A stretch of 64,000 nucleotides of DNA from an uncultured Alphaproteobacteria bacterium (lineage in GTDB: Bacteria; Pseudomonadota; Alphaproteobacteria; HIMB59), in assembly GCA_902523135.1 (NCBI GenBank), contig CABYYB010000001.1, positions 69,044-133,043 on the forward strand. The letters run 5' to 3'. The translations under genes and the position numbers were made by a program. Below, one piece after another: positions 43,423 to 56,965 of this stretch. Below the pieces are notes generated by a model that was not told the DNA's origin, ran no database searches, and saw only the letters and a list, made by a program, of their open reading frames with translations. Each line of letters opens with the position of its first letter. The first letter of the stretch is position 1.

Positions 43423-44403
43423 ATGAATTTTATTGAACTGTTAGAACAGTTAAAAATAGATAAATCCTCAATACAAGACTTTGATAAATGGGCTACTTAT
43501 TTAAAAGACATAAAAGGCCACTCGGAAAACACATATAGATCTTACTGCTTTGATGTATGTGATTTTTTAATTTTCTTTAAATTCTATAATGGAAATTCCG
43601 TATCTTTATCAAATTCAAAAGATTTAAATTTGCAGACATTTAGGGCTTGGTTGGCAGATCTCAGTGAGAATAGAAAATATAAAAATATTTATAAAAAACC
43701 ATTGTCAGCAAGATCAAGGAGAAGAGCTATTAGTTCTATTAAAAATTTTTTTAAGTATTCATCTCTAAATAATGATTTATATAAAGTTGCTTATAGCGAG
43801 GTTCAATTATTAAAAAATCCAAAAATTCCAAGATCCCTTCCTAAACCTATAGCAGAGGGAGATATTGAGATTTTAATTGAAGAGTTAAAAAAAATATCAA
43901 AAAAAAGCTGGGTTCAAAAAAGAAATATAGCTTTGCTTTATCTTTTGTACGGATGTGGGCTACGAATAAATGAGGCGCTATCTATTACTAAAAACCATTT
44001 AATTGATAAAAGTTCTCTTACAATCTTGGGCAAAGGTAATAAAGAAAGATTAGTGCCAGTTCTTGATATTGTAGCTAATTCATTAGAAAATTATCTAAAA
44101 GAAATACCATATGATTTGCCAAGTGATGTTTCGATATTTATTGGCGATAGAGGTAATCCGCTTAAAGCCTCAGCTTTCCAAAGAGATTTGAAGAATGCCA
44201 GAGTTAATTTGGGGCTACCAAAAACAGCAACACCTCACTCATTAAGACATAGTTTTGCAACTCACCTATTAAAAAATGGTGGGGATTTAAGAATAATTCA
44301 AGAATTACTAGGACATAGTTCGTTATCTACAACTCAAATATACACTGAAGTAGATGACATAAGTTTAGAAAAAACTTATAAAGAAAAAAACCCTAGTAAA
44401 TAA
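43423..44403 (+). CDS. xerC: Tyrosine recombinase XerC
   Basis: YGCGLRINE, GKGNKER, TPHSLRHSFATHLL, LGH and TTQIYT; divergent from priA, as is typical in Alphaproteobacteria. Confidence 0.85.
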   Translation: MNFIELLEQLKIDKSSIQDFDKWATYLKDIKGHSENTYRSYCFDVCDFLIFFKFYNGNSVSLSNSKDLNLQTFRAWLADLSENRKYKNIYKKPLSARSRRRAISSIKNFFKYSSLNNDLYKVAYSEVQLLKNPKIPRSLPKPIAEGDIEILIEELKKISKKSWVQKRNIALLYLLYGCGLRINEALSITKNHLIDKSSLTILGKGNKERLVPVLDIVANSLENYLKEIPYDLPSDVSIFIGDRGNPLKASAFQRDLKNARVNLGLPKTATPHSLRHSFATHLLKNGGDLRIIQELLGHSSLSTTQIYTEVDDISLEKTYKEKNPSK

Positions 44404-52621: not shown

Positions 52622-52794
52622 GTAAAATAATTATAGGCCTGATATGACAGCGTAATTACAATTACTATTAATGCCCATATACTTAAATTACTCAAAAACT
52701 GTTTAAGGGAAGAGTTTGTATCTAAAAAATGAGGTCCAACTAAAATCAGTAGACATATAAAATAGATAATAGGCATTATGATTTCAGCAGACAT
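52618..52794 (-). CDS. Small two-TM membrane protein (58 aa, not in ORF track)
   Basis: MSAEIIMPIIYFICLLILVGPHFLDTNSSLKQFLSNLSIWALIVIVITLSYQAYNYFT; TAATG coupling to the ion channel gene. Confidence 0.7.
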   Translation of the reverse strand: MSAEIIMPIIYFICLLILVGPHFLDTNSSLKQFLSNLSIWALIVIVITLSYQAYNYFT

Positions 52795-53576
52795 TATTGA
52801 TCTTTTTTTAGTTTATCTAAACTAATCTCCTCAGAAAATTGTTCATTTAACTTTTCAGCATTATTTCTGGTTTTTATCATATCATCCTTTTTTTCGTTCT
52901 GATTTACAACTACATCAACCAAAATTGCTATTAGAAGATTTAACATTGTAATAGCACAGACAATTATAAAACTAAAAAAATAAATCCATGCCCACCAATA
53001 AATATCTTGTAGAGGCAACATTACCTGTTCCCAAGATGATAATGTTAAAACTTGAAATAAAGTGATCATTGAAATCCCCACATCAGACCATCTCTCGGGT
53101 ATGCTATTTGAAAAGACTATTGCTCCAATAGTTGCATAAATATAGAGAATTATGAAAAGAAGCAAACTTACATAAAAAACTCTTTTTAACGATCCAATCA
53201 AAGACTCAATGATTAATTTTAACTCAGGAATAATAGATATAACTCTCAAAACTCTAAATACTCTTAATAATCTCAAAAGAAGAAAACTGGAGTTGTTAGG
53301 TATTGGTATTAATGAGACCAAAACAATAAATGTGTCAAAAATATTCCAACCATTTTTAAAAAAATTTGATTTTTTCGGCTCTCCTATAAAACGAATTGAA
53401 ATTTCTATTACAAAAAAAATAGTTATTAAATAATCAAGATATTTAATGAGCTCTCTTGAGAACTCTCCTAAATTGTAAGTATTTAAACCGATAGTAAATG
53501 CATTAAATATGATGATAAATAAAACTGAGTATTGAAATAACTTGCTTTCTCTGATTTTAAAAAAGGTATGTTTCAT
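52794..53576 (-). CDS. Voltage-gated cation channel, BacNav/NaChBac family
   Basis: WNIFD, S4 RLLRVFRVLRVI, pore LFQVLTLSSWE and S6 LNLLIAILV; likely start at ATG 53576. Confidence 0.9.
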   Translation of the reverse strand: MKHTFFKIRESKLFQYSVLFIIIFNAFTIGLNTYNLGEFSRELIKYLDYLITIFFVIEISIRFIGEPKKSNFFKNGWNIFDTFIVLVSLIPIPNNSSFLLLRLLRVFRVLRVISIIPELKLIIESLIGSLKRVFYVSLLLFIILYIYATIGAIVFSNSIPERWSDVGISMITLFQVLTLSSWEQVMLPLQDIYWWAWIYFFSFIIVCAITMLNLLIAILVDVVVNQNEKKDDMIKTRNNAEKLNEQFSEEISLDKLKKDQ

Positions 53577-53623
53577 ATTTTTTAAGAATTTATTATCCAA
53601 AAAAAGAGTATATAAATCAACCA

Positions 53624-53663
53624 ATGGTTCTGTGGTGAAACGGATATCACACTTGACTACGGA
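53624..53663 (+). repeat. attL-like direct repeat: 5' half of tRNA-Arg(ACG) up to the anticodon loop
   Basis: atggttctgtggtgaaacggatatcacacttgactacgga, identical to 56889-56928 (40 bp). Confidence 0.95.
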
Positions 53664-53755
53664 AAACACACAGATTGACAGCTTTTACATTAACCTTGTA
53701 AATAATAGATTTTACATTGGAACATCTGTTCAAAACTATGATTAGAAAATAAAAA

Positions 53756-53778
53756 TGCATCAAAAATGCATCATAAGT
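53756..53778 (+). repeat. Left arm-type repeat pair (TGCATCA x2, 11-bp period)
   Basis: tgcatcaaaaatgcatcataagt; aatgcatcataagt (53765-53778) recurs at 56816-56829. Confidence 0.8.
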
Positions 53779-54228
53779 CTAATCTAATTTTTCGAAAATT
53801 TTTTTTGGGTAATCAGTGTCTGCAATTTTAAAATTTAATTTCCCGTTACTACCCTTGATTGTATATTGCTCTCTTTTTAATCTAGATGCGGACACCCATT
53901 CTACATCTTCATAATATTCATCTAATATTTGTTTAAGCTCCTCATACTCAATGCAAGCAATTCCATCTCGACCACAAATAAGTATAAGGTATATATTTTC
54001 TAATAAGTCACGCATAATCTTCATCTCTTCCTGGTGCTCTTTGGTAAAAGAAAATCTCCAGGGGCTTATTTTTTTGGTAGAGAATTTTAGATAGAGTCCC
54101 ACTTTATCATTAATCATAAATGAATTATTTCCAGAAGTAGGGAATACATCTATTTTTATAGGTTTTCCTTTTCTTACTAATCTATTTAGAACAACTCCAT
54201 TGAAAAATTCATATTCATTAAGAGGCAT
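53779..54228 (-). CDS. Hypothetical protein (149 aa), possibly restriction-endonuclease-like fold
   Basis: Alpha/beta pattern with GLYLKFSTK, PWRFSF and LILICGRDG; fold assignment is inference. Confidence 0.7.
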   Translation of the reverse strand: MPLNEYEFFNGVVLNRLVRKGKPIKIDVFPTSGNNSFMINDKVGLYLKFSTKKISPWRFSFTKEHQEEMKIMRDLLENIYLILICGRDGIACIEYEELKQILDEYYEDVEWVSASRLKREQYTIKGSNGKLNFKIADTDYPKKIFEKLD

Positions 54229-54234
54229 TTTTTA

Positions 54235-54242
54235 ATTATATT
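54235..54242. promoter_or_regulatory. Overlapping divergent -10 elements (putative bidirectional leaderless promoter)
   Basis: - strand TATAAT-N6-ATG(54228); + strand TATATT-N5-ATG(54248). Confidence 0.55.
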
Positions 54243-54247
54243 AGATT

Positions 54248-56158
54248 ATGGTTTTTAATCCAAATGATTACATAAACTTTGAGCAAGATAGATACGATAA
54301 ATATTTACAATCTCTTAAATTCGATACAAGTTTTATTGAAAAAACAGTAACAAAATCAATCAATAATTTAGTAAATGAAGATTGTAAGTCCTTTGTTATA
54401 TATGGAGAACCTCAAAGCGGTAAAACTTCAATGATGGTCGCTTTGACAGCAAAATTATTAGATGAAGGATATAGATTTATAATTGTATTGGTGCAAGACA
54501 ATTTAACTCTTGAGCAACAAAATCTTAGACGATTTGAAGAGAGTGAAATTAATCCAAGCCCAAAATCATTTTACGACATTTTACAACCCGAAGTTAATAT
54601 TAAAGAGGGAGAGTTTATAGTATTTTGCAAAAAAAATTCATCGAACCTCTTAAAACTTTTAAAAAGAACTGACAATATACCTAATAAAGTCATAATCGAT
54701 GATGAAGCAGACTATGCCTCGCCAAATTCTAAAATTAATAGAGCTGACAAAGATGGAATAAAAGAACGAACAAGAATAAATGAACGAATTTATAAACTTT
54801 TAGGTAAAACTGGTGTTTTTATTGGTGTTACTGCAACCCCTGCTCGTTTAGATTTAAATAATACCTTTACTAATGAGCATCATATGTGGACATATTTTGA
54901 ACCACACACTAATTACAAAGGACAAGATTTCTTTTTCCCATTAAAGCCAAAAGAAAATCCTCCAAAATATAATCTTCATTTCTTAAAAGAAGAGTCTTCT
55001 AATGAAGGTGGGGAGCTTAGAAATGCAATTTATAGATTTTTAGTTAATGCCAGCTTTGTTAATCTTTATATAAATGAGCCTCATTCGGGCAATTTGAAAA
55101 ATTATATCATGCTCATACATACCAGTGTTAAAATGAGCGACCATAAAGAGGACAGAAAGGTTGCTGAAATTCTTTTTAGTGACCTTAAAAACAAAAAATC
55201 ACAAAAATTTTTTAAGCATTTAAAAAAAATTCATGAAATAGCCTATAAAAAAACTAGAGATGACAAAAGAGCTAAAGAAATAACAAAATTTATTGCTAAA
55301 AATGGTGACAGAAATTTAATCGGGGTTCTTAATAGTGATAAAGACAATAAAACAGTAATAGACATAACTAAGTTTTCTGAAAAGCCGTCAACATTATTTA
55401 CTATATCTATAGGTGGAAATGTAATCTCAAGAGGTGTTACTTTTGATAATTTATTAGGTATGTATTTTACACGGGGCGTAAAAACTCTAATGCAACAAGA
55501 TACATATATCCAGAGAGCTAGAATGTTTGGAAATAGAGGTGAGGATATTCAACATTTTGAACTTACCATACCTGAACAACTTTATCAGCAATGGTGGACT
55601 TGTTTCTTTTTACATAGACTTTCATATCAATCTGCTATGGCTGGACAACATCCAGTATGGTTGGAAGGTGCAGGTACAAGAGCTGTTGCACCTTCAAGTG
55701 TGGATAGAGCTCATGTGAGAGTAGATAAAGGGACAATGAGTTTTGAAAAAGTGAAATATAATAAAATATTAGATGAAATTCTAAATACATCTGCGAGAAT
55801 TAATGACAAAAGAAGACATCAAGACTTACTCTATAAAATTTCTGAGTGTATGCCTGATGATTTTGTTCCAAAGCATGTCTTAGATTTTATAGAGACAGAA
55901 TCTCAAAATGAGGATTTTGCAGTAGCTATTCACAATACAGTAAATATAGAGAAATATGCAGACGCTGAATATGATACTATTTATCGTGCAAGAAGTTTTT
56001 TTGGTGCTAATGATTACAGCACCTACCCATTAGCAAGACATCACTTTAAAATTCTTAAAAATCAAAAAGGATACTGCAGAATGATTTATAATTTTAGACA
56101 TGGGAAAGTATCTTTTTTAAAAAATAAAAGAATTAACGACTTAAGAGAAATAATTTAA
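54248..56158 (+). CDS. Z1-domain SF2 helicase-like protein
   Basis: Walker A GEPQSGKT, IIDDEADYAS, TATP, MLIHTS and IGGNVISRGVTF...YFTR...DTYIQRARMFG.R, characteristic of Z1 proteins. Confidence 0.85.
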   Translation: MVFNPNDYINFEQDRYDKYLQSLKFDTSFIEKTVTKSINNLVNEDCKSFVIYGEPQSGKTSMMVALTAKLLDEGYRFIIVLVQDNLTLEQQNLRRFEESEINPSPKSFYDILQPEVNIKEGEFIVFCKKNSSNLLKLLKRTDNIPNKVIIDDEADYASPNSKINRADKDGIKERTRINERIYKLLGKTGVFIGVTATPARLDLNNTFTNEHHMWTYFEPHTNYKGQDFFFPLKPKENPPKYNLHFLKEESSNEGGELRNAIYRFLVNASFVNLYINEPHSGNLKNYIMLIHTSVKMSDHKEDRKVAEILFSDLKNKKSQKFFKHLKKIHEIAYKKTRDDKRAKEITKFIAKNGDRNLIGVLNSDKDNKTVIDITKFSEKPSTLFTISIGGNVISRGVTFDNLLGMYFTRGVKTLMQQDTYIQRARMFGNRGEDIQHFELTIPEQLYQQWWTCFFLHRLSYQSAMAGQHPVWLEGAGTRAVAPSSVDRAHVRVDKGTMSFEKVKYNKILDEILNTSARINDKRRHQDLLYKISECMPDDFVPKHVLDFIETESQNEDFAVAIHNTVNIEKYADAEYDTIYRARSFFGANDYSTYPLARHHFKILKNQKGYCRMIYNFRHGKVSFLKNKRINDLREII

Positions 56159-56812
56159 TTGTTTGAAAATTTTAGTAAACTTCTAAAAAAAGCTACTAAT
56201 TTAAAAAAAGAAAAAAAATATCTTGATGCACTTGATGTGCTAAAAAAAGCGATTAATCAAGGCAAAGATGAAGTAACTATTTTACATAGACTAAGAGTTC
56301 CTGGGTATTTAACACTAGCTGGAAAGATTGATGAAGCTTGGAGAGAGACAGAAAAAATTCGTATTAATGTAAAAAATCAAAAAGTACCTTTTGAAATAAT
56401 GGATGTTTATAATTCATTCTCAAGTATTAAAAAAGCAGAGGGTGACTTTGATAGTGCTCTTATTTACGGTTTAGTAGGATTAATTGAGGATGCAAACAGA
56501 TTATACAAACTTTACGAGTATTACTTGGAAGAACACAAAGAACAGCAAAGAGAATTTGGAGAGGATTACCTTATTGACTGGGGTTATGCCAAAGATGAAC
56601 ATAGTGGAATGAAATATTTAGAAGAATTCGAAAATAGAAAAAAAGTAGATATTAAATGGCTTAAAATACACATTAATGAAAAAACATTAAAAAAGACCTC
56701 TTTCAAAAACAGAGAGGATAAACTGATAGATACATTCAAAAAAATTTCTAATAAATTACCACTAAAAGGTGATGAAAATTTAGTAGAGGATTTTTTTGAG
56801 TTATTAAAATAA
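56159..56812 (+). CDS. Hypothetical alpha-helical (TPR-like) protein
   Basis: 217-aa ORF abutting the Z1 gene (TTG start); helix-pair patterns YLDALDVLKKA, AGKIDEAW and EGDFDSAL. Confidence 0.65.
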   Translation: MFENFSKLLKKATNLKKEKKYLDALDVLKKAINQGKDEVTILHRLRVPGYLTLAGKIDEAWRETEKIRINVKNQKVPFEIMDVYNSFSSIKKAEGDFDSALIYGLVGLIEDANRLYKLYEYYLEEHKEQQREFGEDYLIDWGYAKDEHSGMKYLEEFENRKKVDIKWLKIHINEKTLKKTSFKNREDKLIDTFKKISNKLPLKGDENLVEDFFELLK

Positions 56813-56815
56813 TTT

Positions 56816-56835
56816 AATGCATCATAAGTGCATCA
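56816..56835 (+). repeat. Right arm-type repeat pair (TGCATCA x2, 11-bp period)
   Basis: aatgcatcataagtgcatca. Confidence 0.8.
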
Positions 56836-56890
56836 TAGGATTTATATTGATTATCTGTGTGTGTTGATTATGTTGAAAAACAAGGTGTAT

Positions 56891-56965
56891 GGTTCTGTGG
56901 TGAAACGGATATCACACTTGACTACGGATCAAGAATTCAGGGTTCGAATCCTTGCAGAACCGCCA
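56891..56965 (+). tRNA. tRNA-Arg(ACG)
   Basis: Cloverleaf: acceptor GGTTCTG/CAGAACC, D-stem GTGA/TCAC, anticodon arm CTTGA-CTACGGA-TCAAG, T-arm CAGGG-TTCGAAT-CCTTG, encoded CCA. Confidence 0.95.

Follow-up and report, generated by a model that had tools for sequence, protein, structure and literature searches.

Analysis of a 64,000-nucleotide stretch of contig CABYYB010000001.1 from an uncultured HIMB59 alphaproteobacterium (the window) revealed a pair of divergent genes, here called H and S, that occur together as a near-constant pair across phyla. Gene H (54248..56158, + strand) encodes a 636-aa DEAD-Z1-C motor of the H.CglI/N.NgoAVII kind, as assigned by profile matches and motifs, and gene S (53779..54228, - strand) encodes its constant 149-aa partner, with a predicted Hjc/RecU-like PD-(D/E)XK fold. 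A third gene, T (56159..56812, + strand), encodes a 217-aa helical protein of no known family and starts with TTG directly after the H stop codon. On sequence evidence, the chances that H and S cooperate as the two subunits of a defence that works without a methylase and is directed at phage or other foreign DNA, with T as a likely passenger, are judged to be evenly balanced. A further proposal, held with rather less confidence, is that in streamlined marine bacteria the two genes form a new stand-alone anti-phage system. A DEAD-Z1 translocase and a subunit of resolvase fold whose active site is non-canonical would then recognise phage DNA independently of methylation marks, and a single 19-bp bidirectional promoter would express both as leaderless mRNAs.

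A set of 119 loci was collected through S, comprising the 80 best of 301 metagenomic matches and 39 genomic loci, with some of the same DNA present twice. H adjoined S in 110 of the 119 loci (108 by open reading frame (ORF) search and 2 by tblastn). The 108 pairs found by ORF search were arranged head-to-head in 36 cases, as H then S in 71 and as S then H in 1. The loci with no H next to S were 3 belonging to one element and 6 that end within 250 nt of S. T gave no match at E < 1 in any of the 119 loci or in the additional locus L175 (0/120). As H stands next to S in nearly all loci and T in none, the unit consists of H and S. The preliminary description of this DNA had proposed a three-gene defence module, built around a stand-alone Z1 helicase, with independent single-gene cargos as the alternative; the co-occurrence expected of such a module was found for H and S and was missing for T, and the constancy of the pair contradicts the stand-alone helicase and the independent cargos alike. 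A structure prediction for the H-S complex (score 0.00, mark 0.32) counts neither for nor against the pairing.

Profile analysis showed that H matches Pfam Z1 (E 7.7e-21), SWI2_SNF2 and ResIII, which agrees with the superfamily 2 (SF2) and Z1 signatures first noticed in the protein, and PADLOC Helicase_II (E 1e-44). All motifs were intact in H, including Walker A (GEPQSGKT), DDEAD, H291/H299, R395 and Q422/R425, and within the head-to-head clade Walker A was intact in 24/24 proteins and DDEAD in 23/24. A profile search of H against solved structures gave nothing significant and retrieved no solved H.CglI fragment, and no close H relative was found on plasmids at E 1e-20. From these profile and motif matches, H is identified as a CglI-type DEAD-Z1-C motor. 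In each of two RNA runs, a single short contig of depth 3 matched the 5' part of H exactly; these were not counted as expression, as DNA carry-over is possible.

S matched no family in Pfam, PADLOC or NCBIfam. Its homologues numbered 71 close ones and 870 representatives at E <= 0.001 (clusters at 50% identity). The model of S was confident (predicted local distance difference test (pLDDT) 86), in line with the alpha/beta protein described before. Compared with solved structures, the model matched Hjc best (Z 10.0, root-mean-square deviation 3.0 over 116 residues), followed by I-Ssp6803I (Z 9.7) and RecU (Z 8.6); the Hjc, RecU and I-Ssp6803I matches ranged from Z 8.4 to 10.0, and the top six structural matches all had the restriction-endonuclease-like core fold. 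Foldseek placed the same proteins first, yet at E >= 0.008. Pfam RecU was matched weakly by 12 of 90 S members (best E 0.0016), a profile search of S against solved structures gave nothing significant, and the nearest Atlas clusters of the S homologue P0041 were unnamed. Among individual residues, K48 was invariant, and H65, Q66, E68, D88 and W57 were strongly conserved; W57, F59, F61, W111 and Y122 are conserved aromatic residues that are kept in methylase-bearing loci too. The position two before K48 was Y, F, H or L in 96% of 126 rows (the window and distant representatives). The catalytic motifs were mapped onto S from secondary structure and known Hjc/RecU motifs, and a search for Hjc sequences to align with S gave two marginal matches only. 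S is therefore predicted, from its model, to have an Hjc/RecU-like PD-(D/E)XK fold without the canonical acidic catalytic residues. On this model, a non-canonical K48/H65/Q66/E68 site might allow S to cut DNA, with the balance tilted slightly against it. The suggestion that the 149-aa protein is the nuclease thus holds for the fold and falters on the acidic residues.

Among 187 genomes of the order, and likewise among 401 of the class, S was present only in the genome of the window itself; a Pelagibacteraceae sample gave 3 of 401 genomes, with one further weak match containing stops. No S relatives were found in viral contigs, and two distant relatives lay on cyanobacterial plasmids. Extended forms of S were also observed: an S of 361 aa whose C-terminal extension belongs to no known family (L073:6998-8083 and L138:4113-5198), and P0254 (313 aa).

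Profile scans with Pfam, PADLOC and NCBIfam detected neither a methyltransferase nor MORC, AIPR or a recognisable family of nucleases in the cassette, which bears out the earlier observation that none of these is recognisable. The locus is thus methylase-free, with a motor and a small partner of predicted nuclease fold. In the tandem loci, an SPPY-type N4/N6 methylase (M) was found within 4 kb in 46 of 71, and within 100 bp in 43 of those 46. The other 25 tandem loci comprised 13 that were too short to judge and 12 without an SPPY-type methylase. Six of these 12 (L043, L049, L066, L085, L086 and L164) were cleanly methylase-free, and in the remainder H was broken, a different methylase was present or the methylase probably lies further away. 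When 35 methylases of the family were used in tblastn, 0 of 37 head-to-head loci were matched. In the genome of the window, the only PF01555 gene was CcrM-like and under the curated cut-off, PF00145 gave no match, and the family methylase profile found only the CcrM-like gene (E 1.9e-6) and one weak match (E 0.002). The family methylase gave no match in the three Pelagibacteraceae genomes that bear the pair. Mean pairwise identity over 35 methylase-bearing loci was 40% for M, 57% for S and 65% for H; S is nearly as conserved as H and M is far more variable, as would be expected if the target is fixed and does not change quickly. In five Bacteroidota loci (L146, L151, L153, L158 and L160), MORC/GHKL-type genes were inserted between methylase and H.

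A tree of 86 H proteins (>= 560 aa) placed 25 head-to-head rows in one clade (Shimodaira-Hasegawa-like approximate likelihood ratio test (SH-aLRT) 95), with L050 apart. All 45 methylase-labelled rows fell in another clade (95), which holds a methylase-free subclade (100), and L043/L085 and L049/L066/L086 formed separate methylase-free tandem lineages. The root was a midpoint root only and several branches were long, so the tree is compatible with gain as well as with loss of the methylase. For 11 chosen pairs, the ratio of nonsynonymous to synonymous substitution rates (dN/dS, Nei-Gojobori) was 0.018-0.091 for H (11/11) and 0.016-0.122 for S (9/11 computable); these values are rough, since dS was 0.6-2.5 and near saturation. 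These ratios indicate that H and S of the head-to-head clade are under strong purifying selection. The head-to-head marine clade, without the family methylase, is new relative to the methylase-H-S arrangement. Literature listings that cover mainly papers outside subscription journals showed no account of H together with S; homologues of this kind may figure in the H-subunit alignment that accompanies PMC5861437 as a supplement. The MANTIS paper mentions CglI only as a citation, and papers on marine flexible genomes gave no passage on the tRNA array of the window.

The start codons of H and S are divergent and 19 bp apart, and the spacer between them (54229..54247) is likely a bidirectional promoter. 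It contains overlapping -10-like hexamers, TATATT at 54237-54242 (+) and TATAAT at 54240-54235 (-). The 31 distinct spacers from 39 loci were 18-20 bp long in 19 cases, 27-31 bp in 11 and 39 bp in 1, and no Shine-Dalgarno motif was found in any of the 31. Both strands carried a -10-like hexamer 5-7 nt upstream of the ATG in 18 of 19 short spacers and 1 of 12 long ones, where the expectation for both strands was 2.7% per shuffled spacer. With the spacers aligned on the central TATA, the final T of the hexamer was kept in 19/19 on one strand and 18/19 on the other, and the base before it varied; because the spacers share descent, this pattern represents conservation and not 19 independent trials. 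The sigma-70 promoter scan demands a -35 box and did not list the spacer. Bidirectional promoters with a shared -10 element, whose start sites are most often 18 bp apart, are described in PMC12825309. Judged from its hexamers, the spacer is likely a bidirectional promoter that yields two leaderless mRNAs.

Turning to T, its own model had pLDDT 42, and the model of its homologue P0203 reached a template modelling (TM) score of 0.47-0.48 to tetratricopeptide repeat (TPR) proteins, under the 0.5 bar, with no TPR profile match in Pfam. The N-terminus of T is possibly TPR-like on these models, and the likeness first proposed is thus weakly supported. The 13 homologues of T were all 87-100% identical, its own genome was the only one among 187 of the order to carry T, and no T relatives were found in phages. 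Contigs of several other runs bridge the H-T junction in this lineage, and in one contig T is missing and a divergent H runs straight into position 56818; with a short side of 28 nt, this single contig is weak evidence. In L007, the closest H relative with flanks (H 84% identical), a PLD-B3 gene occupies the slot behind H. From this distribution, T is likely a lineage-specific, exchangeable passenger in that slot. The L007 gene itself (L007:437-1441) is of the NgoFVII type with an HxK motif and stands between tRNA genes, with S present and methylase absent; by its sequence, L007 is possibly a hybrid with a CglI-type R subunit.

For the proposed two-subunit defence, one bidirectional -10 element would make H and S from leaderless mRNAs. 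S would take the place of the PLD-B3 R subunit of CglI, engage DNA and license H to translocate with ATP. With no self-mark encoded, the trigger would be a feature absent from host DNA. Favoured over a specific sequence is a DNA structure that arises when phages replicate or recombine (ends, forks, junctions), as in Hachiman; the reasons are the similarity of S to junction resolvases and its level of conservation, which is close to that of the motor, with far greater variation among the methylases. The target DNA would then be blocked or cut in a motor-dependent manner. The genomic context was counted for defence and included the tRNA cassette array, the L175 integrase/primase element, Type II restriction-modification (RM) pairs, Dsr1 and PDC-M59A.

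Several observations weigh against this proposal. In S, position 46, where the E of (D/E)xK is expected, was Y or F in 81/81 aligned loci, positions 35-36, where an aspartate is expected, held N, S or A, and the helix-1 glutamate was kept in 62% of the head-to-head clade. The loci were selected via S, so that any H without S lies outside the count, and 3 loci of one element carry S without H; this element (L046-L048, L147) adjoins a serine-recombinase-like fragment and tRNA-Ser. Most head-to-head contigs were short: among 36 loci, flanks of at least 500 nt were available beyond H in 13, beyond S in 14 and on both sides in 4, plus L175 and the window. The methylase search in the own genome covered PF01555, PF00145 and the family profile in an assembly that is 82% complete. 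A C5 methylase, unrelated to the family methylase, was found within 2.5 kb in 6 of 37 head-to-head loci; 4 of the 6 face their own restriction-enzyme-like gene (of the TdeIII family in two), the fifth immediately follows H in L014 and the sixth immediately adjoins S in L175. With these neighbouring C5 methylases and the PLD-B3 R-type gene of L007, help from neighbours is possible. The identity of M tracked that of S (r 0.50) more than that of H (r 0.23), which fits sequence specificity in S; the pairs compared are not independent. Finally, the cargo of the tRNA array in 40 relatives' loci was mostly non-defence. In L175, the head-to-head pair (L175:2274-11513) lies in a satellite-like element of a single-contig genome, with a primase-AAA25, a tyrosine integrase, an unannotated 203-aa gene and an HNH gene in addition to the C5 methylase.

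Two other functions were considered for the pair. H and S could form a modification-dependent (Type IV-like) restriction enzyme, in which S reads a non-host base via its aromatics and H translocates to cut or block. Such an enzyme would not need a cognate methylase, and the conserved W57, F59, F61, W111 and Y122 and the weaker fold matches of S to NhoI (Z 6.3), DpnI (5.3) and Eco15I (5.0), which are modification-dependent enzymes, point in this direction. These matches, however, rank below Hjc/RecU and within the common-fold range, the same aromatics persist where a methylase is present, the Pfam scan found no SRA, EVE or PUA reader domain in the cassette, and the C5 methylase beside S in L175 counts against plain 5mC targeting; this reading is considered unlikely. 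An equally improbable function is that of a non-cutting accessory motor, with S as a dead nuclease fold that binds DNA, which would assist neighbouring or trans-encoded restriction enzymes or methylases, or clear proteins from DNA, and so would require no methylase within the pair. The family-wide loss of canonical catalytic acids in S and the frequent proximity of Type II RM pairs, MORC-type genes and one PLD-B3 gene are consistent with this, and PMC12278908 provides a precedent in the catalytically inactive HamA-like domain of AbpA. The neighbours, however, are unrelated to each other, and are missing around the pairs in the window, L127 and L129, which have housekeeping genes or tRNA repeats as flanks, yet selection is strong.

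The SPPY-type N4/N6 methylase of 46/71 tandem loci raises the question of whether H and S are a decaying or silent relic, left as the restriction half of an RM system of methylase, motor and partner after the methylase was lost. The dN/dS values of 0.02-0.12 at synonymous sites near saturation, the intact motifs, the conserved dedicated spacer and the separate methylase-free tandem lineages largely refute this, and it is regarded as very improbable from the sequences. Hardly any weight is likewise given to a three-gene system with T as a TPR sensor. T does start immediately after the H stop, inside the same repeats, with a junction bridged in several runs and a weak TPR likeness, but it was absent from all 120 loci, its homologues number only 13 and are all 87-100% identical, another gene fills its slot in L007 and a T-less form exists at the same tRNA (the one contig with the 28-nt short side).

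The cassette that carries the pair is 3.3 kb long and has at each end a copy of the 5' half of tRNA-Arg(ACG), together a perfect direct repeat of 40 nt. A direct-repeat search placed the left attachment site, an exact 40-nt copy of this half, at 53624..53663 (+), and the right attachment site at 56889-56928, which includes the first 38 nt of tRNA-Arg(ACG) (56891..56965, +). The ORF check and the repeats confirmed that S, H and T, at the positions first reported, are the whole cargo and nothing more. The GC content of the cassette was 28-30% and that of the genome 31%, so composition does not mark it. Copies of the tRNA 3' end are commoner at such boundaries than copies of the 5' half. Of the 68 same-genus genomes that matched the tRNA-Arg region, 40 were compared over it. 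In 27 of these, 1-2 further copies of the 40-mer lie upstream of that tRNA and delimit stretches of 0.6-3.3 kb with differing contents, among them polysaccharide-lyase-like, cupin, HNH-HIT, DUF3427-NucS-like and PLD proteins; S, H and T were found in none of the 40. These copies with differing cargo identify the window locus as one cassette of a tRNA-anchored array, which grows upstream of tRNA-Arg(ACG) and is bounded by copies of the tRNA 5' half. No integrase was found in the annotated parts of the relatives' fetched array stretches. Inside the two ends lie an inner repeat with two short ATGCATCA-type units (53741..53775, +) and a second ATGCATCA-type repeat (56803..56837, +) that is 77% identical to it. 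In a circular form they would stand on either side of the attachment core, as the arm sites of an integrase do, and the paired repeats are possible candidates for arm-type sites; they were not seen as pairs in the 40 relatives' tRNA-Arg loci. A XerC-type tyrosine-recombinase-like gene, recognised by eye, lies 9 kb off the cassette (window 43423-44403). An ion-transport, voltage-gated-channel-like gene is located at 52794-53669; its long GTG start falls inside the attachment copy and is probably false, and the relatives' ORFs are mostly 260-268 aa. The own genome is 1.19 Mb, 82% complete and found in marine metagenomes. Contig depth over the cassette was about 1% of that of the flanks, a figure that is no measure of the share of cells.

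The H-S family is large, with 870 S clusters, and is not represented by any Pfam, NCBIfam or PADLOC model. In most genomes it has the appearance of an RM system, and the head-to-head clade keeps both genes under strong selection without the family methylase. If the stand-alone reading is true, the methylase of the wider family would be an optional add-on and not the core of self/non-self discrimination. As a two-gene construct of 2.4 kb, the pair is the simplest means of studying the action of a DEAD-Z1 motor that has no PLD nuclease, and it bears on whether a PD-(D/E)XK fold without acidic residues can cut and on how self is told from phage in SAR11-type bacteria, which have few known defences. 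The conserved 19-bp two-way leaderless promoter would be a very compact natural co-expression element.

Compared with known systems, S resembles Hjc, RecU and I-Ssp6803I in its predicted fold, in the lysine on the motif III strand and in the HQ of the following helix, which parallels RecU; it differs in having N/S and Y/F in place of the acidic metal ligands and in being tied to a motor gene. The tandem methylase-H-S cassettes encode H proteins about 41-48% and S proteins about 41-53% identical to those of the window, with the same non-canonical S site, whereas the window clade has no SPPY methylase and is arranged head-to-head, not in tandem, with an 18-20-bp (or 27-31-bp) spacer. The Mza system shares a Z1-domain SF2 protein, but H has 636 aa and scored 53 bits against the MzaC cut-off of 1500, and MORC, AIPR and the C5 methylase are absent from the cassette; together with dN/dS far below 1, this answers the earlier concern that the Z1 gene might be a relic of an Mza operon. 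Hachiman likewise pairs a protein of restriction fold with an SF2 motor in a two-gene system and responds to DNA damage (PMC12278908); discrimination of self by DNA structure and not by methylation is the logic proposed for H and S too. HamB is Ski2-like and HamA is a DUF1837 protein with an intact D-ExK, and neither family matched H or S (Pfam, PADLOC, E 0.1). A further likeness is to the ATP-dependent RM systems CglI, NgoAVII and BceSIV, which have a DEAD-Z1-C H subunit of about 630 aa and a separately encoded partner (PMC4267653, PMC5861437). H shares with CglI the Q-containing Walker A, DDEAD, the motif V arginine, the QxxR of motif VI and an H/H motif of histidines eight apart (H282/H290 in CglI, H291/H299 in H; PMC5861437). 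The CglI/NgoAVII systems act as R2H2 complexes whose ATPase and cleavage depend on the site. H.CglI is described in PMC4267653 as hydrolysing ATP only when complexed with its R partner on unmethylated sites. CglI/NgoAVII has a PLD-B3 R subunit and an m5C methylase, whereas S and T match no PLD or NgoFVII family, the only related locus with such a subunit is L007, and the cassette has no m5C methylase. By sequence, H-S would thus work like a CglI-type motor system and fall outside its membership for want of the PLD-B3 R subunit and the m5C methylase; here the partner is a 149-aa protein of predicted PD-(D/E)XK fold, encoded head-to-head with the motor.

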